DNA of 64,000 bases, taken from the NCBI GenBank assembly GCA_018657385.1, contig JABHXF010000028.1, positions 1,472 to 65,471 of the forward strand, read 5' to 3'. This stretch comes from Candidatus Woesearchaeota archaeon. Its GTDB lineage: Archaea > Nanobdellota > Nanobdellia > Woesearchaeales > DSVV01. The notes under the pieces were generated by a model. The model was not told where the DNA came from and searched no databases. It was given only the letters and a program-made list of their open reading frames with translations. Positions 1,897 to 57,233 of the stretch are shown one piece after another (positions within the stretch are counted from its first letter, which is position 1; the number at the start of each line of letters is the position of its first letter). The position numbers and the translations under genes were made by a program.

Positions 1897-3579
1897 TCAT
1901 ACTTCTTGATTATATTTACTTAATGCTGCTTTTGCTAGCTCATTATTTTCGTTAACTGATAAGACTGTTTTCCACTCTTTTATTGCTTCTTCAGTTAAGT
2001 TTTTCTTTTCATAAGCTAGTCCTAAAGCATAATGAGCTAATTCATGACCAGGTGCAATTCTAAACACTCTTTTAAAATCTTTAATTGCTTGTTCAACACT
2101 ACCGCCTTCTCTTAAATTAGGATTTTCTAAAAAATTTAAACTATTTGCTTTTTGCCATAATTTGTTAATATAGTCCTCATCAAATTCATCTGTATGTATT
2201 AAGGTAAAACCAAACAAAATTTGATTAAAATCAAGATTTCTATCAATATAATTATTATCCCAACAAGTTTTAAATAATTCAGTCCCTGGTAAAGGTGTTG
2301 TAATACTAAAGCATAACCAGTCTATACCTAATTTTTTTGCGAACTCCAAGGTCATATCCATTTCTGCTTTTGTTTCTCCAGGAGTTCCTAACATAAAGAA
2401 TGCCCTTGTTTTTAATCCTACATCTTTAGCAATATTAATAATATCTTCTGCTTTTTCTAAAGATAATGGTTTCTTAATAACTTTGCTTACAACTCTTTGA
2501 CAGCCGCTTTCAATTGCAAGAGTAATACTTGCACACCCACTTCTTTTAATTCTCTCTAATATATCTCTATCAAGAGCATAAGTTGCAATACCATTAGGTG
2601 TTGTCCATGTCATATCCCAACCTTTATTTTCAATGCCATCTATAATGCCATCTAATATTTTAATAGTTCTTTCTTTATTAAATGTGAAGTTATCGTCTAG
2701 AATAAGAAATTCTTTTACATCATATTTACCAATTAAATATTCTATTTCTCCTAAAACATGTTCAGCAGATCTTGCCCTGTATTTCTGACCCCACATTATT
2801 GGAGCAGAACAATAAATACAACTAGCAGGACATCCTCTGCTTGTTACTAAAGTTGCCCATGGCGTTCTTGTAGCTTCTCCTTGAGGTAAATTAACCTCCC
2901 AATATTTTTGATTAGGAATAAGATGTCTTGCAGGAAATGGAAGTTCATCTAAATTTTCAATAGCTTTTGTTTTAGGAATTATTCTAATCTCATGATTAAT
3001 TCTCAAAGCAATACCATCTAAATCATCAAACTTTAATTCACCATTTAGGAAATTCATTAATTCTAAAAAAGAATAATCTGCTTCCCCTAAAACTGCATAA
3101 TCTAAATTATCATCTGAAAGAACATTTTTAGTATCAAAAGTTGGGTGAACACCACCTGTTACTGTAATGTAATTTGGATCAATTGATTTAATTAGTTTAA
3201 ATAATCTTTTTGCATCCTTATATTTTGTTGTGATAGTACAAGAAACACCAATAACATCTGGCTGGAAATCTTTGATATGTTTTATAATATCTGCATCATC
3301 AAGGCCATACCTATAGATTCCAGGTTCTATCTCTCTTCCAATATGACATTGAGGATCTTCTACAATTGCATCTAAGATTTTAACAATAAAATTATTTTTT
3401 TCAAGAACTGCTGCAATATATGCTAAACCAATTGGTGGTTGAACACCAGGCCTTGCTTTTGCCATGAATTCAATAGGAACTGTTCTTGGTGGCTCAATTA
3501 AGAGAATTCTTTTTACTTCTTTTTTAGTTATACTGTCTCTCATTGTATTCGTTGTATTAATTGTATCCATCGTAATCAT
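1897..3579 (-). CDS. B12-binding-domain radical SAM protein with C-terminal TPR-like repeats
   Basis: 560 aa. The N-terminus has a Rossmann-like cobalamin-binding layout, and CPASCIYC is the CxxxCxxC radical SAM cluster motif. The tail AHYALGLAYEKKNLTEEAIKEWKTVL looks like TPR repeats. Confidence 0.8.
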   Translation of the reverse strand: MITMDTINTTNTMRDSITKKEVKRILLIEPPRTVPIEFMAKARPGVQPPIGLAYIAAVLEKNNFIVKILDAIVEDPQCHIGREIEPGIYRYGLDDADIIKHIKDFQPDVIGVSCTITTKYKDAKRLFKLIKSIDPNYITVTGGVHPTFDTKNVLSDDNLDYAVLGEADYSFLELMNFLNGELKFDDLDGIALRINHEIRIIPKTKAIENLDELPFPARHLIPNQKYWEVNLPQGEATRTPWATLVTSRGCPASCIYCSAPIMWGQKYRARSAEHVLGEIEYLIGKYDVKEFLILDDNFTFNKERTIKILDGIIDGIENKGWDMTWTTPNGIATYALDRDILERIKRSGCASITLAIESGCQRVVSKVIKKPLSLEKAEDIINIAKDVGLKTRAFFMLGTPGETKAEMDMTLEFAKKLGIDWLCFSITTPLPGTELFKTCWDNNYIDRNLDFNQILFGFTLIHTDEFDEDYINKLWQKANSLNFLENPNLREGGSVEQAIKDFKRVFRIAPGHELAHYALGLAYEKKNLTEEAIKEWKTVLSVNENNELAKAALSKYNQEV

Positions 3580-6607: not shown

Positions 6608-8620
6608 ATGCAATCAAAAGATATTCTTAAACCAAATAATACATTTAAATCAGGTGATTCTATTAAAGGAGATGATCCTATTAAAGCAGATGATTCTCTT
6701 AAATCAGAAGATATTCTATTCCCACATGAAAAAATACGAAATGAACAAAATAAATTGATTAGTGATATAATCAATGCTGTTAAAAATAAGAAAAGTCTTA
6801 TTGCCCATGCCCCAACAGGTTTAGGCAAGACTGCTGCTGCCTTAAGTCCTATATTAAAATATGCCATTGAAAATGATTTAACTGTATTTTTTTTAACATC
6901 TAGACATACTCAACATAAGATTGCAATTGATACTTTAAGAGAAATTAAGGAAAAGCATAATGTTAAATTTAATGTTGCAGATATTATTGGGAAAAAATGG
7001 ATGTGTGGAGTTCCAAATATTTCAGGTTTATTTCCTAATGAGTTTATAGAATATTGTAAAAATATGCGTGAAACAAAAAAGTGTGCTTATTTTATTAACA
7101 CAAGGGGTGGTGATAATACAAGCAGTAAATCAATCAACTCTAATAAAATCACAGTAAAAGCAAAAAAAATAATTGAAGATCTCAAATTAGGTATAAGAGA
7201 TTCTGAGGATATAATTGAATTTTGTTCAAAAGATGAATTATGTCCTTATGAGATTTCAATAGAACTTGCAAGAAACGCTAAAGTAATTATTTCAGATTAT
7301 TATTATGTGTTTAATCCACATGTTAATGAAGTCTTTTTTAAAAAGATTAATGCAGAATTAGAAAAAAGTATAATTATTGTTGATGAAGCTCACAATTTGC
7401 CAGATAGAATTAGAAACTTAGCAACAAACAGACTAACAAGTATGATGTTAAAAAGAGCAATTAAAGAAGCAAAAAAACATGGTTATACTGAAACATTAGG
7501 GAATTTAGTTTATGCTCAAGATGTACTTATTCAGTTATCAAGAAAATTTGAAAAAATGAGTAATAATTCTAGAAGTTATTATAAGGAAACAAAAGTAACA
7601 AAAGAAGAATTTATGGATGCAATTAATAAAGAGAAAAATTATGATGATATATTATCTGATTTAATTTCTATTGCTGAATCAATAAGAGAAACTCAAAAAA
7701 GAAGTTTTATTGGAGGAATTGCGAGATTTTTTGAATATTGGCCAAAAGATGATGAAGGGTTTACAAGAATACTTAAACTTGAAGAAACTAAAGAAGGACA
7801 AATAATTACTTTAAGTTTTACTTGCTTAGACCCATCTATAATTACTAGTCCTGTTATTGAAGAATGTCATTCATGTATTTTTATGTCAGGAACATTAACA
7901 CCAACATTTATGTATAAAGACTTATTAGGTGTAAAAAATGGAATTGAAAAAGAATATAAATCACCATTTCCTCTCAAAAATAGATTAAATCTAATTGTTC
8001 CAAAAACAACAACTAAATTTGAAAAAAGAAGTACACAACAATATGAAAACATAGGGAAAACAACAGCAGATATTGTAAATAAAATTAAAGGTAATGTTTT
8101 TATGTTTTTTCCAAGCTATAAAATGCGTGATAGTGTTTATCTATTTTTTATGAATTTATGTAAAAAAACTATTTTTCTTGAAGATTCAAAAATGAGCAAA
8201 GAACAAAGATTAGAAATGCTAGAAAAATTTAAAATGTATAAAAAAACAGGGGCAGTATTATTAGGTGTTACCTCTGGGAGTTTTGGTGAAGGAATAGATA
8301 TGCCAGGTGATTTATTAAATGGTGTTGTGGTTGTAGGGTTACCATTAGGTGTTCCTGATTTAGAAACAAAAGAATTAATTAATTATTTTGATAAAAAATA
8401 TCAAAAAGGTTGGGATTATGGTTATTTGTACCCAGCATTCCAAAAAACACTACAAAATGCAGGTAGATGCATCAGAAGTGAAACAGATAAAGGAGTTACA
8501 GTATTCTTAGATGAAAGATATGCTTGGTCAAGATATAAAAATTGCTTTCCAGATGATTATGAAATGGTTGTTGTTGAAGAATATGGTGATGTTATTGAAA
8601 AGTTCTTTAAAACCTCATAA
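6608..8620 (+). CDS. xpd: XPD/Rad3-family (DinG-like) 5'-3' DNA helicase
   Basis: 670 aa. AHAPTGLGKT is the Walker A motif and VDEAHNL the DEAH box. Four Cys lie between them, consistent with the Fe-S domain, and the C-terminus carries QNAGRCIRS (motif VI). Confidence 0.8.
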   Translation: MQSKDILKPNNTFKSGDSIKGDDPIKADDSLKSEDILFPHEKIRNEQNKLISDIINAVKNKKSLIAHAPTGLGKTAAALSPILKYAIENDLTVFFLTSRHTQHKIAIDTLREIKEKHNVKFNVADIIGKKWMCGVPNISGLFPNEFIEYCKNMRETKKCAYFINTRGGDNTSSKSINSNKITVKAKKIIEDLKLGIRDSEDIIEFCSKDELCPYEISIELARNAKVIISDYYYVFNPHVNEVFFKKINAELEKSIIIVDEAHNLPDRIRNLATNRLTSMMLKRAIKEAKKHGYTETLGNLVYAQDVLIQLSRKFEKMSNNSRSYYKETKVTKEEFMDAINKEKNYDDILSDLISIAESIRETQKRSFIGGIARFFEYWPKDDEGFTRILKLEETKEGQIITLSFTCLDPSIITSPVIEECHSCIFMSGTLTPTFMYKDLLGVKNGIEKEYKSPFPLKNRLNLIVPKTTTKFEKRSTQQYENIGKTTADIVNKIKGNVFMFFPSYKMRDSVYLFFMNLCKKTIFLEDSKMSKEQRLEMLEKFKMYKKTGAVLLGVTSGSFGEGIDMPGDLLNGVVVVGLPLGVPDLETKELINYFDKKYQKGWDYGYLYPAFQKTLQNAGRCIRSETDKGVTVFLDERYAWSRYKNCFPDDYEMVVVEEYGDVIEKFFKTS

Positions 8621-12186: not shown

Positions 12187-12253
12187 GATTTTAATGTTTT
12201 TAATAGTTTAATTCTTTAATATATGTATAAATAATTTGGTCAGACCAATCTTT

Positions 12254-12340
12254 AAATCCAACAACATGGCCGGGCGAACCGAAGGTGAGTAGGATTTTTG
12301 CTTGCAAAAGTCCGTCCGTGCCATTGATGTTGTTGGATTT
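12254..12340 (+). ncRNA. GC-rich three-way-junction structured element, family 1 copy A (candidate small RNA)
   Basis: Outer stem AAAUCCAACAACAU/AUGUUGUUGGAUUU. P1 is GGCCGGGC/GUCCG-U-GCC, P2 is ACC-GAA-GGU, and the junction is GAGUA. P3 is GGAUUUUUG-CUUG-CAAAAGUCC. Confidence 0.65.
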
Positions 12341-12360
12341 ATTATTAAGAGATTAAAAAG

Positions 12361-12395
12361 AAAAAATTCAGTAGCTACATGTCCTCCGGACCTAG
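12361..12395 (-). terminator. GGACCTAG box (conserved small hairpin plus oligo-T), copy 1
   Basis: The minus strand reads CTAGGTCCGGAGGACATGTAGCTACTGAATTTTTTC. This is the only copy not placed after a co-directional stop codon. Confidence 0.35.
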
Positions 12396-16806: not shown

Positions 16807-17628
16807 ATGGAAGAAAAAGAACAAGACATATTAGAAACACTAAAATCAATTGGCTTAACAGAGGGTGAATCTAAAACATACCTGGCTTTGCTCTCCATAG
16901 GTACATCCACTGTGGGCCCAATTGTTGAAAAAGCAAGTGTAAGTTCTTCAAAAGTCTACATAATCCTTGATAAATTAATTCATAAAGGTCTTGTAGGTAT
17001 AGTTATTAAGAATGGAAAGAAAAACTATACTGCTGCACAACCTGAAAAAATAATAGATTATCTAAACGAAGAACAACAAAAAGTTGAAAGAAACAAGATG
17101 CTTGCTAAAAAGATCTTACCAGAACTTAGATTAAAGAAAGGATCTGTTAGTAAATTACCTATTGTTGAATTAACTAAAGGAAGAAAAGGCACAGAGATGT
17201 TTTATGATGAGGTGTATGCAAATCTAAAAGAAGGAGATGAATATATTGCAACATCTGGAACAAGAATTTCTTTCAAATTGCAAAATTATTGGTTTAAACA
17301 AAGTGAAATTTTGGCAAAAATGAAAATACCTCAATTTTTAGCTTATGAATATGATGTTTGGCATAAAAAAGATCCAAGTGCACACAAAAGAAAGAAAAGA
17401 AAAAATTATTTCCCTAAAATTCTTGATAAAAAATATAAAGATTTACCAACAATAATCACAATTGGAAATTATTCTGTTGTAAGTGATCTAGATGATGGTG
17501 GAGAACTATTTACTTTGCTTATTAGAAATAAAAACTTAACAAATGCTTTGAAAAGGCTATTAGTTGTAGTCAGAGATTCAGGCAATGTTCCAGAAGGATT
17601 TGAAGAAAAATTTAAAAAAAATAGTTAA
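16807..17628 (+). CDS. TrmB-family transcription regulator (paralog 1)
   Basis: 273 aa. The N-terminus LKSIGLTEGESKTYLALLSIGTSTVGPIVEKASVSSSKVYIILDKLIHKGLV is the TrmB winged-helix domain. Confidence 0.75.
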   Translation: MEEKEQDILETLKSIGLTEGESKTYLALLSIGTSTVGPIVEKASVSSSKVYIILDKLIHKGLVGIVIKNGKKNYTAAQPEKIIDYLNEEQQKVERNKMLAKKILPELRLKKGSVSKLPIVELTKGRKGTEMFYDEVYANLKEGDEYIATSGTRISFKLQNYWFKQSEILAKMKIPQFLAYEYDVWHKKDPSAHKRKKRKNYFPKILDKKYKDLPTIITIGNYSVVSDLDDGGELFTLLIRNKNLTNALKRLLVVVRDSGNVPEGFEEKFKKNS

Positions 17629-27753: not shown

Positions 27754-27824
27754 AGGTTATATTTATTTAAAATCTGATAATATACCTGGATGAAAAAATA
27801 ATAACAATGGTCAGGCGAACATTT

Positions 27825-27901
27825 AAATCCAACAACATGGCCGGGCGAGGCGAAGCCGAGTAGGACTTTAGTCCGTCCGTGCCGTGGTTGTTGTTGGATT
27901 T
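27825..27901 (+). ncRNA. Family 1 structured element, copy B
   Basis: It has the same outer stem and P1 as copy A. P2 is GGC-GAA-GCC, a compensated version of ACC-GAA-GGU, and P3 is shortened to GGACU-UU-AGUCC. Confidence 0.65.
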
Positions 27902-27943: not shown

Positions 27944-27974
27944 AAATCACGGGAAACACGTCCTCCGGACCTAG
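27944..27974 (-). terminator. GGACCTAG box, copy 2
   Basis: The minus strand reads CTAGGTCCGGAGGACGTGTTTCCCGTGATTTTCTTTTTTTT, starting 17 nt after the stop of the 27991-28728 gene. Confidence 0.45.
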
Positions 27975-31251: not shown

Positions 31252-31395
31252 TTAAGTTGAGAAGATGAGATAATATTAAAAGTTTGTTAATTTTATAGGG
31301 TGGTGGGTGGGGGCTCCTAGGGGGATGGTTAATCTTTTCTCACTAATATTTATAAAATTAAATTACATTAAAACAAAATTAGTTTAAAATAAAAT

Positions 31396-31430
31396 AAAAA
31401 ATTCATGAGCTATATGTCCTTCGGACCTAG
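31396..31430 (-). terminator. GGACCTAG box, copy 3 (no adjacent family 1 core)
   Basis: The minus strand reads CTAGGTCCGAAGGACATATAGCTCATGAATTTTTTATTTTATTTT, starting 36 nt after the PEP carboxylase stop. Confidence 0.45.
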
Positions 31431-33471: not shown

Positions 33472-33556
33472 CTAGGTTCGGAGTACTTTCAAACTTGTTT
33501 GGAAGCTCAATAATCTCGATGAAGTAGGGATTATTTTTGCGTATTTCCCGTGACTT
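33472..33556 (+). terminator. GGACCTAG box, copy 4 (degenerate and split by an about 50-nt insertion)
   Basis: The plus strand reads CTAGGTTCGGAGTAC ... TTTCCCGTGACTTTAATTTTT, starting 31 nt after the 76-aa ORF stop. Confidence 0.35.
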
Positions 33557-33590: not shown

Positions 33591-33678
33591 AAATAACAAC
33601 AACAAAGGCATGGACGGACATTTTTCTACGAAAAATATCCTATTCGGCTTCGCCCCATCCGGCCATTGTTGTTATTTT
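33591..33678 (-). ncRNA. Family 1 structured element, copy C
   Basis: The minus strand reads AAAAUAACAACAAU-GGCCGGAU-G-GGCGAAGCC-GAAUA-GGAUAUUUUUC-GUA-GAAAAAUGUCC-GUCCAUGCC-UUUGUUGUUGUUAUUUU. Confidence 0.6.
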
Positions 33679-37845: not shown

Positions 37846-37969
37846 ATTACCTGATTTTTTTATTTTATTTTTTTATTAAATATTTTATCATAATTACTCA
37901 TAATCATTAGGTAAAAACAATTCATGCTCATACCCTTTTTAGGGTCTTTGTGTGGTGTAAGAAGTTCTT

Positions 37970-38013
37970 GCCTTCAGGTTTTTGTCACCCCCGACACTCC
38001 AACGCCTGAAGGC
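37970..38013 (+). other. GC-rich hairpin island (candidate small RNA or terminator)
   Basis: GCCTTCAGG-N26-CCTGAAGGC forms a 9-bp stem, preceded by a small ACCC-TTTTTA-GGGT hairpin at 37932-37945. It lies 125 nt downstream of ftsZ. Confidence 0.3.
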
Positions 38014-38075
38014 ACTTTTATTCTGTAGATTTTAGAGTATAAATATTTATATACATCATATTATTTCCTTTCTTT

Positions 38076-41149: not shown

Positions 41150-41181
41150 CTAGGTCCTGAGGACATGTTTCCCGTGATTTT
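41150..41181 (+). terminator. GGACCTAG box, copy 5
   Basis: The plus strand reads CTAGGTCCTGAGGACATGTTTCCCGTGATTTT, starting 14 nt after the kae1 stop and followed by AATTTTT. Confidence 0.45.
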
Positions 41182-41214: not shown

Positions 41215-41299
41215 AAATAACAACAACCATGGCACAGACGGACTTTTCTTTCAGAAAAATCCTACTCGCCTAACGGCTCGCCTGGCCAAGTTGTTATTT
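41215..41299 (-). ncRNA. Family 1 structured element, copy D
   Basis: The minus strand has P1 GGCCAGGC/GUCUG-U-GCC, in which the G-C pair of copy A is replaced by A-U. P2 is GCC-GUUA-GGC, the junction is GAGUA, and P3 is GGAUUUUUC-UGAAA-GAAAAGUCC. Confidence 0.65.
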
Positions 41300-41322
41300 T
41301 CTCATCCAGTAATGTTATGAGA

Positions 41323-41355
41323 TTTAAAGATTCGCTTGGCCAAATTGTTGGATTT
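41323..41355 (-). repeat. Truncated 5' half-copy of family 1 (D')
   Basis: The minus strand reads AAATCCAACAATTTGGCCAAGCGAATCTTTAAA, which is an outer-stem 5' arm plus a P1 5' arm only. A 6-bp hairpin (TCTCAT...ATGAGA) and then copy D follow. Confidence 0.5.
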
Positions 41356-46420: not shown

Positions 46421-46515
46421 CAACAACAACATAGGCAAGAGACGGACATTTAAAAAATGTCCTAGGGGGCACCCCGAATGGGGCAACCCCCACCCCCTCT
46501 CTGCCTTTGTTGTTG
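46421..46515 (-). ncRNA. Family 1 structured element, copy E (long-P2 subtype)
   Basis: The minus strand has P1 GGCAGAGA/UCUCU-U-GCC. P2 is GGGGG-U-GGGGGUUG-CCCC-AUUC-GGGG-UG-CCCCC, then CUA, and P3 is GGACAUUU-UUU-AAAUGUCC. Confidence 0.6.
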
Positions 46516-46524
46516 CATTTTTAT

Positions 46525-46627
46525 AAAACACCACCATTGACGCAGACCGACCGAGGGTTGGCTCCTTCGGAGTGGTCGGTAGGATTTTCATAGAAAATCC
46601 GTCTGCTGTCAGTAGTGGTGGTGTTTT
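46525..46627 (+). ncRNA. Family 1 structured element, copy F (long-P2 subtype)
   Basis: The outer stem is AAAACACCACCA/UAGUGGUGGUGUUUU and P1 is GACGCAGAC/GUCUGC-U-GUC. P2 is CGACC-GAGGGUUGG-CUCC-UUC-GGAG-U-GGUCG, then GUA, and P3 is GGAUUUUC-AUA-GAAAAUCC. Confidence 0.65.
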
Positions 46628-46704: not shown

Positions 46705-46817
46705 AGCCCCGTAGTGTAGTGGCCCATCATCCTGGATTTTGGAAGGCGGAAAAGTGGATTTTTCTGTGTTTCCCCTGGGAATGTCCTGGGACCTCGGTTC
46801 AAATCCGGGCGGGGCTA
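46705..46817 (+). tRNA. tRNA-Gln(UUG) with a 40-nt intron at the canonical 37/38 position (46743-46782)
   Basis: The acceptor stem is AGCCCCG/CGGGGCU with an A1-U72 pair, as I recall for archaeal tRNA-Gln. The T arm is CUCGG-UUCAAAU-CCGGG and the anticodon loop is UUUUGGA. A 3-4-3 bulge-helix-bulge can be drawn, and CCA is not encoded. Confidence 0.8.
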
Positions 46818-49558: not shown

Positions 49559-49666
49559 AAAATCCATTCATTGCGCACATGTGAGTCGACTGAAAGGAGA
49601 CGAATAGGATTTTTTTGAACGTAGTGAAAAAAAGTCCGTATGTGCTGCCATGAATGAATGGATTTT
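49559..49666 (+). ncRNA. Family 1 structured element, copy G
   Basis: The outer stem is AAAAUCCAUUCAUU/AAUGAAUGGAUUUU and P1 is GCGCACAU/AUGUGC-U-GC. P2 is GUCGACU-GAAA-GGAGAC, the junction is GAAUA, and P3 is GGAUUUUUUU...AAAAAAAGUCC. Confidence 0.6.
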
Positions 49667-49689: not shown

Positions 49690-49722
49690 AAAATCCAATA
49701 GCTACATGTCCTTCGGACCTAG
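49690..49722 (-). terminator. GGACCTAG box, copy 6
   Basis: The minus strand reads CTAGGTCCGAAGGACATGTAGCTATTGGATTTTTATTTTTT, starting 36 nt after the stop of the 49759-50088 gene. Confidence 0.45.
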
Positions 49723-54571: not shown

Positions 54572-54680
54572 AAATTACCAACAATAATGGTGGCAGACGG
54601 CCATTTTCTTTCAGAAAATGTCCTATGGTCCACCCCGGAAGGGACAACCCCCAGATCATCTGCACCATTGTTGGTGATTT
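54572..54680 (-). ncRNA. Family 1 structured element, copy H (long-P2 subtype)
   Basis: The minus strand has P1 GGUGCAGA/UCUGC-C-ACC. P2 is GAUCU-GGGGGUUG-UCCC-UUCC-GGGG-U-GGACC, then AUA, and P3 is GGACAUUUUC-UGAAA-GAAAAUGGCC. Confidence 0.6.
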
Positions 54681-57200: not shown

Positions 57201-57233
57201 AAAATTCCTGAGAAACACGTCCTCCGGACCTAG
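57201..57233 (-). terminator. GGACCTAG box, copy 7 (no adjacent family 1 core)
   Basis: The minus strand reads CTAGGTCCGGAGGACGTGTTTCTCAGGAATTTTAATTTTTT, starting 51 nt after the hydA stop. Confidence 0.45.

Follow-up and report, generated by a model that had tools for sequence, protein, structure and literature searches.

Eight copies of one element in the window

What are the G+C-rich islands that recur between the genes of a Woesearchaeota (DPANN) archaeon whose genome is 29% G+C? DPANN archaea have tiny genomes, and scarcely any non-coding RNA biology has been described for them. We analysed a 64-kb stretch of DNA from this organism, hereafter the window, in which an initial annotation made from sequence alone had listed eight copies of a structured element of no named family and had offered two candidate explanations, a small RNA and a structured mobile element. 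All eight were confirmed in position and strand (Table 1). The copies are intergenic, measure 77 to 109 bases each and are found on both strands of the window. About 1% of the window DNA belongs to this one structured family.

The pattern TAGGAYN{5,35}CCGT occurs at exactly these eight places, with 0.37 matches expected by chance and none of 100 shuffles reaching eight. An unfiltered covariance-model scan of the entire window returned the eight copies at 35 to 64 bits, including copy B, which was absent from the seed of that model; the next match, at 19 bits, comprised the P3 hairpin only. With a larger model, called R2, the eight copies scored 31 to 71 bits. No ninth copy was detected by the covariance models over the window. 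Our own loose descriptor scan gave 263 matches, most of them false, and its sole use was to reveal the second copy of a related locus, L014. Two subtypes can be distinguished by their P2 hairpins, type 1 (A, B, C, D and G) and type 2 (E, F and H). Outside the core, pairwise identity among the window copies is low; the copies of this genome are old and diverged, not near-identical.

Table 1. Family copies and associated features of the 64-kb window. Scores in bits were obtained with model R2.
Feature	Coordinates	Strand	Score	Description	Setting
Copy A, type 1	12254..12340	+	71.3 bits	S0; P1 with bulged U; P2 = GA-ACC-GAA-GGU-GAG; UAGGAU P3; CCGU	
Copy B, type 1	27825..27901	+	61 bits	Short P3	Antisense, between two minus-strand genes
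Copy C, type 1	33591..33678	-	68.7 bits	One C.A mismatch in P1	In a 750-nt divergent intergenic region
Copy D, type 1	41215..41299	-	60.1 bits		Between convergent genes LonB and Kae1, 93 nt past the LonB stop
Copy E, type 2	46421..46515	-	55.5 bits	P2: GGGGGUUG / UG internal loop and 4-bp hairpin	Head-to-head with F
E/F spacer	46516..46524	.		CATTTTTAT; 9 nt, AT-only	Separates the 5' ends of E and F
Copy F, type 2	46525..46627	+	61.8 bits		78 nt upstream of an intron-containing tRNA-Gln
Copy G, type 1	49559..49666	+	31.3 bits	Most divergent; P1a of 2 bp; P2 and P3 longer	14 nt past a same-strand stop codon
Copy H, type 2	54572..54680	-	45.1 bits	Bulged C; A.G at third P3 pair	25 nt past the stop of an EamA-family gene
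3'-truncated copy	27793..27818	+	48	S0 5' arm, P1 5' strand and GA	Just upstream of B
Truncated 5' halves	41300..41355	-	34 (best)	0/1898 background windows equal	Upstream of D
Degenerate 5'-half-like segment TTTGGTCAGACCAATCTTT	12235..12253	+	18	Not significant alone	Between a TATA-like box and copy A
Degenerate 5'-half-like segment AAATCCAATTACAAGGCAAATGAA	33679..33702	-	22	p ~0.04	Immediately upstream of copy C
Second motif (..AYRYGTCCTYNGGACCTAG)	12382..12395	+			42 nt downstream of A
Second motif	27961-27974	+			After B
Second motif	33472-33485	-			After C
Second motif	41150-41163	-			After D
Second motif	49709-49722	+			After G
Second motif	31417-31430 and 57220-57233				No neighbouring copy

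A conserved three-way junction that folds on one strand

Each copy taken alone folds into a long outer stem (S0), a bulged GC helix (P1) and a three-way junction, with z-scores of -3.5 to -7.0 for the eight copies. S0 forms a terminal inverted repeat of 12 to 18 bp in every window copy, and the closing helix as a whole exceeds 20 bp. P1 carries one extrahelical pyrimidine; this 1-nt bulge and another of 3-4 nt are both on the 3' strand, 3-5 bp apart. P2 branches from the junction via tandem G.A pairs, which flank it in 12 of the 15 family members sampled (see below). P3 is a plain AU-rich hairpin that continues, without any unpaired base, into the 3' strand of P1, so that the two helices are probably stacked. 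In the relative L010, P3 tolerates an insertion of ~75 nt. The junction bases are invariant and the helices vary in sequence, the consensus core being (C)GA-[P2]-GA(G/A)-(U/C)A-GGRY[P3]RNCC-GU.

The helices are supported by covariation. Among 12 core sequences, 90% of the cells were paired and 15 of 21 pairs had changed on both sides; none of 500 shuffles reached this level of pairing, and slid controls gave 37-48%. When the outer stem was included (15 sequences), 90.8% of the cells were paired, as compared with 35-55% in slid controls, and the pairs changed on both sides numbered 25 out of 31. Both alignments were fitted to the model, which somewhat favours the structure. Approximately 10% of the paired cells of the core are G.U. 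With RNA parameters, all 15 members are more stable on the assigned strand than as the reverse complement, by 1.5-13.7 kcal/mol; with DNA parameters, that strand is the better folder in 14 members, with one tie. Selection for folding on one strand is highly probable. Copy A has a G(CUUG)C tetraloop and the relative L116 a C(UUCG)G tetraloop, and C-GNA-G triloops are present in P2 of A, B and C and in P3 of C and L104. Such triloops are also a hallmark of very stable DNA mini-hairpins.

The fold, its covariation and its strand preference are thus shown, and most of what the initial annotation had said of them held. The common S0, P1 and three-way junction were confirmed, although the minimum-free-energy folds of A and B draw the interior differently, with the shared fold still accessible. 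The claimed invariance of UAGGAY and CCGU holds in 8/8 window copies, and the bulged pyrimidine, the 3-4 nt bulge of the 3' arm and the listed P1 variants were all found. The compensatory changes and the strand-specific fold that it had inferred stand as well. A T-rich tail as a feature of the family does not, as it is missing in the GC-richer relatives. Both options of a small RNA and of a structured mobile element retain support, since the element combines RNA-like features with mobile-like genome dynamics. The annotation had also named outcomes that would refute it, namely no significant covariation in an expanded alignment, an Rfam or IS/MITE match explaining the element, or no transcript together with identical terminal repeats and target-site duplications; none was met.

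A patchy family restricted so far to Woesearchaeota

As the conserved core has too few fixed bases for a whole-family DNA pattern, for which we estimated tens of thousands or more chance matches in public collections, relatives were drawn from ~2.2 Mb of LonB-centred loci of other Woesearchaeota. This search of related archaea, which had been suggested in the annotation, did yield homologues. The same architecture was found in five further lineages of 31-48% G+C, for a total of 15 members in six lineages (29-48% G+C). The relatives that carry members are L010, L014 (+ and -), L020a, L020b, L104 and L116.

The density is very uneven, with eight copies per 64 kb in the window versus seven distinct copies per ~2.2 Mb elsewhere, every one of the latter within the five lineages. 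Copies in relatives cluster: L020 has two within 21 kb, and those of L014 form an adjacent pair. Compared with L010 and L011, the nearest relatives, the window has its copies at non-orthologous positions. The distribution is patchy and burst-like, with the family amplified in few lineages. No additional copy was found in ~12 kb more of the same genome, and five contigs of the same population displayed no insertion/deletion polymorphism and no variation in or near the elements.

Searches of phage and plasmid collections gave no family match, and no description of such an element was found in the literature searched. With the 4227 models of Rfam 15, no match at gathering score was obtained anywhere in the window, and at E<=10 nothing overlapped any of the eight copies, in line with the initial view of an unnamed family. 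Short-region Rfam scans of E/F and L020a returned generic hairpin or miRNA matches only, at 12-16 bits. ARAGORN reported nothing at any copy, whether introns were allowed or not. Within the loci sampled, these elements likely represent an undescribed, non-coding family of ~75-160 nt, so far specific to Woesearchaeota and of unknown function.

Genomic setting, promoters and tails

Copies A, D, F, G and H are located 14-164 nt past a same-strand stop codon. Eight of the 15 members (B, C, L010, L020a, L020b, L014+, L104 and L116) have no co-directional upstream gene, and none is present upstream of L014- within the examined locus, which extends no farther than its partner L014+. Because members such as B, C, L010 and L020a/b lack a co-directional upstream gene, the elements are not simply 3' UTRs.

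TATA-like boxes precede the outer stem by ~19-27 nt in A, B, C, D, H, L010 and L020a/b, a weak argument for promoters since such sequences are nearly unavoidable in DNA of 29% G+C. They are absent from E/F and from the L014 pair. There, ~9 nt separate the 5' ends, which leaves no space for canonical promoters upstream of full outer stems. In this genome an A-run and a U-run flank the outer stem. What had been read as a T-rich tail corresponds to the U strand at the A/U-rich end of that stem, in an AT-rich genome. Oligo-U after the element is absent in the GC-richer relatives. D and G are positioned between convergent genes, with a second repeated motif (see below) facing them from the opposite strand, followed by U-runs.

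The elements have no coding capacity. No transposase, integrase or reverse transcriptase is encoded in the 64-kb window, nor is a recombinase or transposase encoded in the extra 12 kb of the same genome. Neither a target-site duplication nor a fixed terminal sequence is visible at the copies. S0 bears no resemblance to the rRNA processing stems of this genome.

Truncated copies and longer repeated units

Each type-1 copy (A, B, C, D and G) belongs to a longer repeated unit. Three clear 3'-truncated copies were identified, each directly upstream of a complete copy. That preceding B is identical at 25 of 26 positions to the 5' half of the L010 element (E 1.7e-7), and its score was equalled by 0/1898 background windows. 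The first half upstream of D (41331-41355) resembles A (22/25) and terminates in GCGAA. The second (41300-41325), which is weaker and was recognized by eye only, terminates in GAGA. Every truncated copy ends 0-3 nt from the junction GA, and no 3'-half remnants were found.

The second motif has 7 matches for 0.44 expected. We rejected the idea that it represents a terminator of convergent genes, as A and C have no convergent gene. A long-range helix between an upstream GGUCAGG and a downstream CCGGACC around the type-1 unit was also discarded, being good in B only.

Copies have also been replaced. L104 and L116 have flanks that are ~97% identical and harbour different family members at the same site. 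Head-to-head pairs recur in two lineages, E/F here and the L014 pair, whose spacer is TTGATAAAC. The truncated and replaced copies are directly observed. The family probably acts as a genomic repeat whose copies lie in any orientation to the neighbouring genes and recombine with one another at the junction.

Comparison with known systems

Like REP, REPIN and BIME elements, the copies are short G+C-rich structured intergenic repeats, often after genes or between convergent genes, with compensatory differences between subtypes, bulged stems, inverted pairs and a copy number that varies among lineages. However, REPs are bacterial, simple hairpins of 20-40 nt with a conserved 5' GTAG/GGAG, moved by RAYT (a Y1 HUH transposase), whereas the Woesearchaeota element has 75-160 nt, a three-way junction, a long outer helix, an archaeal host and more diverged copies. 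GUAG does occur in it, though inside the junction, and no RAYT-like gene was seen in the DNA examined (64-kb window and 12 kb).

With integron attC sites it shares a conserved single-strand fold of variable sequence, one functional strand, extrahelical bases and a spacer on one strand, a distal structure of variable length, and recombination that yields exchanged or hybrid sites. In contrast with attC sites, it is found between housekeeping genes in both orientations without cassette arrays or integrase, and its junction sequence is conserved, which is not the case in attC sites. An attC identity was rejected, as the R''/R' core fits only A and B (ATCCAAC / GTTGGAT) and no integrase is encoded in the window.

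MITEs such as the Correia/NEMIS elements of Neisseria and the SM elements of Sulfolobus are likewise non-coding, ~100 bp, multi-copy and intergenic, with terminal inverted repeats (here the outer stem) and possible co-transcription and RNA folding. Their copies are near-identical, with fixed terminal repeats and target-site duplications, unlike our element, whose arms covary, whose interior is under structural selection and which shows no visible duplication. Of the MITE criteria, terminal inverted repeats are met; duplications, near-identity and a cognate IS are not met in the window.

G+C screens of AT-rich archaea have reportedly uncovered the Hgc RNAs and families of H/ACA or C/D sRNAs (Klein et al. 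2002). The present family resembles such RNAs in forming G+C islands in AT-rich intergenic DNA and in comprising multiple genes with a shared fold and differing sequences; genes for C/D sRNAs, too, are mobile within genomes, and their products can be processed from any transcript. It differs from them by the absence of C/D or H/ACA boxes, of a standard k-turn and of any Rfam match, and by a three-way junction combined with a terminal helix of 12-18 bp. Y RNAs and YrlA have ~100 nt, a long terminal stem with a bulged pyrimidine, a variable centre and several paralogues, as here; the U-rich 3' end is shared in this genome only, as the tail is not conserved. Their bulge is on the opposite strand, however, and the Ro-binding helix sequence, the tRNA-like module and any Rfam match are missing from the element. 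Ro is not known to occur in these archaea.

The hammerhead ribozyme also has a three-way junction, multiple copies, and GA 5' and GA(A/G) 3' of one helix. The element differs from it at J1/2, which is (C)GA rather than CUGANGA, and at J2/3, which is GAGUA rather than GAA. A hammerhead identity was excluded as the base at the cleavage site is G or absent (a non-G is required at position 17) and no model matched.

Several other candidates were rejected. For a kink-turn or k-junction bound by L7Ae, the required 3-nt bulge 5' of the tandem G.A pairs, between the C and NC helices, is missing, the three unpaired bases being 3' of the GA on the other strand; P1 adjoins GA directly, since the last two P1 pairs covary (C-G/U.G, G.U/A-U). 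The bulge-helix-bulge motif requires two 3-nt bulges on opposite strands of a 4-bp helix, but both bulges of the element are on the 3' strand. For tRNAs, including intron-containing, split or permuted ones, in addition to the null ARAGORN result, there are just two hairpins in the closing helix and no T-arm or T-loop sequence (GTTCRANYC). 5S rRNA (RF00001) has ~120 nt, a helix I of 9-10 bp, conserved loops C and E and a single sequence in each genome; it is ruled out by the absence of a match at E<=10, eight different sequences in one genome, a closing helix >20 bp and a P3 that is a mere AU-rich hairpin. When the consensus of the element was set against Y RNA, sarcin-ricin/loop E and retron msr/msd feature by feature, each failed on a defining feature or lacked the partner gene.

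A structured RNA family as the preferred, tentative reading

Our preferred explanation is a new, lineage-amplified family of structured RNAs with a conserved junction that probably binds a protein. We assign it a probability of roughly 0.45. Transcription, protein binding and the mode by which the copies spread are all inferred. In this model, the folding strand of each copy would be transcribed to give a compact, nuclease-resistant small RNA. Most copies would be driven by their own TATA-like promoters and some would ride on neighbouring transcripts. A trans-acting protein would recognize the invariant junction, and P2, P3 and the outer stem would serve as structural arms whose sequence and length could vary freely.

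Several features point to RNA. G+C-rich islands in an archaeal genome of 29% G+C are a classic signature of structural RNAs, and the tandem G.A pairs at the base of P2 and the CUUG and UUCG tetraloops are RNA-typical. The tolerance of P3 to the L010 insertion resembles that of a peripheral RNA arm, and intergenic placement independent of neighbour orientation indicates autonomy. The core is conserved far above chance, with covarying helices around an invariant junction. The lack of coding capacity and of genes for transposase, integrase or reverse transcriptase in the window is also in keeping with RNA. Nevertheless, no expression data support the proposed transcripts. There is no promoter space in E/F and the L014 pair, and no oligo-U terminator in the GC-richer relatives. 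Moreover, patchiness, truncations and copy exchange suit mobile or repeat DNA better than a housekeeping RNA, and elements read as single-stranded DNA would be expected just as much to fold on one strand and to contain wobble pairs.

If the RNA reading is correct, this is a new multi-gene RNA family whose compact junction might be used to fish for its protein partner. Conservation across lineages almost 20 G+C points apart implies either a real cellular role or efficient spreading. In either case, the covariance model offers a direct handle for annotating many Woesearchaeota genomes.

Alternative explanations

The rival that survives best, and which remains possible, is use of the fold in single-stranded DNA, as a non-autonomous mobile or recombination module similar to REP/REPINs, attC sites or the ends of IS200/IS605. 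A trans-encoded HUH or tyrosine recombinase would read the folded strand and cut at the junction, and any RNA would be incidental. This would fit the patchy bursts at sites non-orthologous to L010 and L011, the truncations at the junction GA without 3'-half remnants, the member exchange between L104 and L116, and the head-to-head pairs spaced by 9 nt in two lineages, reminiscent of REP doublets. The extrahelical base and unpaired spacer on one strand and the variable distal structure are attC-like, and the C-GNA-G triloops and DNA-parameter folding (14/15 members) are also in favour of this view. Against it, neither the window nor the added 12 kb encodes a recombinase or transposase, target-site duplications and fixed terminal sequences are not apparent, the copies of one genome are old and diverged, and the five same-population contigs show no insertion/deletion polymorphism. 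Cassette arrays are absent, and the RYYYAAC/GTTRRRY core fits A and B alone. The truncations could equally have arisen if long inverted repeats broke at the hairpin tip and were then repaired ectopically. If true, this would be a REP- or attC-like system of structured repeats, of which, to our knowledge, none has been described in archaea before, and recombination at the junction might drive genome rearrangement in these symbionts.

Less convincing is action in cis on transcripts, as a terminator, insulator or 3'-end stabilizer like bacterial REP/BIME and ERIC elements, whereby the element, co-transcribed with flanking genes, would block exonucleases or read-through. The proximity of A, D, F, G and H to upstream stops, the A-run and U-run flanks in this genome, akin to a two-way terminator, and the arrangement of D and G with the opposing second motif and U-runs support it, and a different intergenic repeat in L011 (see below) suggests a general need for such elements. 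Conversely, 8/15 members have no co-directional upstream gene, U-runs are missing from the GC-richer relatives, and a terminator or stabilizer needs no invariant three-way-junction core across lineages. Archaeal termination is thought to require just oligo-T.

A bolder proposal, which we also regard as unlikely, is that of a non-autonomous 'self-homing' element whose junction is the site of both recognition and cleavage/joining. The catalyst would be the RNA itself, as a new class of ribozyme, or an unknown structure-specific enzyme, and new copies would land at the P1/P2 junction of resident copies. It would account for the GA-ending truncations, the member exchange between near-identical genomes and the single-lineage bursts in DPANN.

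Least probable is a catalytic or ligand-binding junction, i.e. a new self-cleaving ribozyme, whose cleavage site would be marked by the GA ends of the truncated copies, or an orphan aptamer: the small invariant junction with free helices (as in hammerhead-type ribozymes and three-way-junction aptamers), the GA...GA(A/G) around P2 like hammerhead stem II, the multi-copy, repeat-associated occurrence shared with many ribozymes and the truncations 0-3 nt from the junction GA speak for it, but the CUGANGA core is absent, no Rfam ribozyme or riboswitch matches even at E<=10, the positions of the copies relative to genes do not fit a riboswitch, very few unpaired junction bases remain for an active site or pocket, and the truncation point can be explained otherwise.

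As a side observation, nearly all intergenic regions of L011 contain another G+C-rich hairpin repeat, different from this family.

A recurrent three-way-junction element in Woesearchaeota

The initial annotation had proposed that eight copies of a three-way-junction element (A, B, F and G on the forward strand, C, D, E and H on the reverse strand) share one fold not recognised as that of any named RNA family. All eight were confirmed in the sequence at the proposed positions and strands, and the pattern TAGGAYN{5,35}CCGT matches them and no other site of the window (0.37 expected). Folded singly, every copy forms a long outer stem (S0) that encloses a three-way junction (z-scores between -3.5 and -7.0). 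A first covariance model, seeded with length-normalised cores and with copy B outside the seed, was applied unfiltered to the full window and recovered exactly the eight copies (35-64 bits, B included), the best non-member match reaching only 19 bits. The common fold thus held, and so did its unnamed status: the suggested Rfam check gave no Rfam 15 match at gathering score or at E<=10. ARAGORN found no tRNA at any of the eight copies.

The covariance search of related archaea that had also been suggested was carried out with a second model including the outer stem (75 positions, 31 pairs). We searched 161 loci (2.19 Mb), namely 160 LonB-centred loci from Woesearchaeota genomes and metagenomes and one further locus. 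This search found further members (Table), with no other match below E=5 except an echo of the L101 copy on the reverse strand (15 bits). As the G+C content of the copy-bearing relatives spans 31-48%, the fold is not explained by AT-richness.

In the resulting 15-sequence alignment, 90.8% of cells hold standard pairs and 25 of the 31 pairs show two-sided changes; none of 500 shuffles reached the observed pairing or covariation values. Sliding the partners lowers pairing to 35-55%, with the highest values at +/-3 because the outer stem is made of CAA/UUG-like triplets. A 12-sequence alignment of the core alone agrees with this. Both alignments were fitted to the model, so the covariation figures are somewhat inflated; the effect is nonetheless large. 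The stated strand is more stable than its reverse complement in all 15 members with RNA parameters, and in 14 with DNA parameters (one tie). The compensatory base changes and the strand specificity claimed initially were both upheld, and there is good support for selection acting to keep a single-strand fold whose junction is invariant.

Consensus architecture

The outer stem is frequently CAACAA/UUGUUG-like, and a 3-4 nt bulge on the 3' strand separates it from P1a, the 3-5 bp first part of the GC helix P1. The extrahelical base on the 3' strand of P1 is a pyrimidine (U or C) except for an A in one member, and the final two pairs of P1b are G.U/A-U and C-G/U.G. GA, the inner hairpin P2, GA(G/A), (U/C)A and GGRY-P3-RNCC follow. 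The third pair of P3 is A-U, A.G or G.A, its middle is A/U-rich even in GC-rich genomes, and the GU after it leads directly into the P1 3' strand. P2 defines two subtypes. In type 1, it is a minimal 3-bp hairpin with a GAA-type loop (A, B, C, D) or has a longer, different apex (G and the elements of L010 and L020). In type 2 (E, F, H, both L014 copies, L104 and L116), it is extended, with an internal loop and a hairpin conserved in sequence (GGGGGUUG-CCCC-UUCG-GGGG-UG).

The conserved TAGGR and CCGT lie 12 to >90 nt apart with P3 between them, and only folding of the strand juxtaposes them, which makes it unlikely that plain double-stranded DNA is recognised. The T-rich tail initially included in the fold did not hold, as no U-run follows the element in GC-richer relatives; in the AT-rich genome of the window, the outer stem has an A/U-rich end, and the tail is the U strand of this end.

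Both copies of L020, from a 48% G+C genome, have GA directly 5' and GAG directly 3' of the outer stem (GAG UA in the second copy), bases identical to those around P2 within every element. They might form a tandem G.A cap closing the outer stem in that lineage; alternatively, these copies might occupy the P2 position of a decayed outer copy.

Distribution and rearrangements

Copy density is highly uneven, with eight copies in the 64-kb window and only seven distinct ones in ~2.2 Mb of other loci, clustered in few genomes (two within 21 kb in L020, an adjacent pair in L014). The closest relatives in which gene order is conserved have no copies at the window's positions, and the single L010 copy lies elsewhere. 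No further copy was found in ~12 kb of extra sequence of the window's genome, and the elements do not vary among five contigs from its population. The syntenic relative L011 (33% G+C) lacks the family and has its own G+C-rich hairpin repeat (..GAGACGGTGGACTGCGTCCCACAAACGGGTTGNGAGCG..), whose five copies in 20 kb occupy most intergenic regions there.

Immediately upstream of complete copies are copies truncated at their 3' side, which comprise the 5' arm of the outer stem, the 5' strand of P1 and GA. The truncated copy preceding B matches the L010 element's 5' half, rather than B, at 25 of 26 positions, and that before D resembles A (22/25). Weaker segments of this kind precede A and C; a search for 3'-half remnants found none. 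L104 and L116, whose flanks are ~97% identical, differ at the element site: L104 has a complete copy, and L116 has only the 5' half of that copy, to GCGAGG, then a 13-nt linker and a different complete copy. The P1/P2 junction is therefore a recurrent breakpoint, and members replace one another. These two loci also differ by a 65-nt indel bounded by 10-nt direct repeats (GCAACCCGCA) and holding another partial outer-stem-arm copy, TTAGCCAGCCATGGC, which adds to the evidence of rearrangement around the elements.

RNA or single-stranded DNA

The defining features of Rfam families, tRNA, hammerhead, k-turn, bulge-helix-bulge, 5S rRNA, attC, MITE and REP were not met, and we therefore class the family as a structured multi-copy intergenic element or small-RNA family. 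Its nearest analogues are bacterial REP/REPIN elements and integron attC sites in behaviour, and archaeal sRNA families in gene-family style. The odds that its junction chemistry or mode of spreading is new are modest.

Present sequence evidence does not settle whether the folded strand acts as RNA or DNA. Our main reading, at a probability of roughly 0.45, is a family of structured small RNAs whose junction binds a protein, both transcription and protein binding being inferred. In its favour are G.U pairs (~10% of core pairs), tandem G.A pairs, CUUG and UUCG tetraloops, a peripheral arm tolerating large insertions, G+C islands, a classic signature of archaeal structural RNAs, and TATA-like boxes at a plausible distance from most copies, including two in the 48% G+C genome.

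Ranked below it, a REP- or attC-like single-stranded-DNA element used by a mobile or recombination system remains possible. The patchy, burst-like distribution, the truncated and exchanged copies with their constant breakpoint, the C-GNA-G triloops and the relatives without terminators favour it, as do head-to-head pairs without room for promoters (the 5' ends of E and F are separated by 9 AT-only bases; the L014 pair is arranged alike in an unrelated gene neighbourhood). Nevertheless, the truncated copies may also have arisen when hairpins broke and were repaired ectopically, a fate to which any long inverted repeat is prone, and so are no proof of a dedicated mobility mechanism. Furthermore, neither the window nor two short same-genome extensions encode a transposase, integrase or reverse transcriptase.

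A cis-acting element at transcript ends is an unlikely third reading. Element orientation is independent of neighbouring genes: a same-strand gene lies 14-164 nt upstream of A, D, F, G and H, and co-directional upstream genes are lacking for B, C and the L010, L020, L104 and L116 copies, as well as, within the fetched locus only, for both L014 copies. A ribozyme or aptamer core ranks last and is very unlikely.

Longer units and genomic context

Type-1 window copies are parts of longer repeated units, since inter-copy similarity runs 40-90 nt downstream. A second motif, AYRYGTCCTYNGGACCTAG, lies ~42-105 nt downstream of all five; it has seven window copies (0.44 expected), two of which stand alone, and was not found in relatives. 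The core of this second repeat family, (A/T)YRYGTCC-YNN-GGACCTAG, has a 4-bp GUCC/GGAC hairpin followed by CUAG. In five cases, its reverse complement lies 15-52 nt past the stop of a convergent gene and precedes U-runs; the motif is thus possibly a terminator-like module.

A G-tract island (GGGTGGTGGGTGGGGGCTCCTAGGGGGATGG) upstream of a lone copy of the second motif folds significantly on neither strand (z -0.7 and -0.3). The G+C-rich hairpin after FtsZ (GCCUUCAGG...CCUGAAGGC, z -3.3), followed by UUUUAUU, resembles an ordinary terminator-like structure and does not belong to the three-way-junction family.

Table. Repeats, family members and single features of the window and other Woesearchaeota loci
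Feature	Locus	Position
Second motif	window	12382-12395 (+)
Second motif	window	27961-27974 (+)
Second motif	window	31417-31430 (+)
Second motif	window	33472-33485 (-)
Second motif	window	41150-41163 (-)
Second motif	window	49709-49722 (+)
Second motif	window	57220-57233 (+)
G-tract island, intergenic	window	31279-31349 (+)
Hairpin after FtsZ	window	37969-38015 (+)
tRNA-Gln(UUG)	window	46705-46817 (+)
Second-model hit, one copy	L010 (same as L092)	
Second-model hits, two copies, head-to-head	L014	
Second-model hits, two copies	L020 (same as L101)	
Second-model hit, one copy	L104 (same as L105)	
Second-model hit, one copy	L116 (same as L039)	
GA / GAG beside outer stem	L020	8313-8314 / 8404-8406
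GA / GAG beside outer stem	L020	17324-17325 / 17451-17453
65-nt indel (alignment columns 175-240)	L104 / L116	~3040-3140 / ~4900
G+C-rich repeat	L011	5073-5130
G+C-rich repeat	L011	6798-6857
G+C-rich repeat	L011	14896-14956
G+C-rich repeat	L011	15791-15861
G+C-rich repeat	L011	19420-19475
rRNA operon	L172	3461-8115

The window (29% G+C) carries ordinary archaeal chromosomal genes, including those for LonB, Kae1, an archaeal-type PEP carboxylase, FtsZ with SepF, XPD- and UvrD-like helicases and a [NiFe]-hydrogenase module. The top LonB matches in GTDB genomes are Woesearchaeota MAGs at <=81% identity, with none closer among metagenome contigs; near-identical contigs of the same population were found across many metagenomes. 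To the left of the window, ~1.2-5.8 kb from its start, the L172 locus of the same genome harbours a 16S - tRNA (with intron) - 23S rRNA operon and, after it, a 23S_rRNA_IVP family gene; no 5S rRNA was detected around this operon or in the window. Default ARAGORN and Rfam (even at E<=10) missed an intron-bearing tRNA-Gln(UUG) gene that only aragorn -i detected, 78 nt downstream of copy F and with its own TATA-like box.
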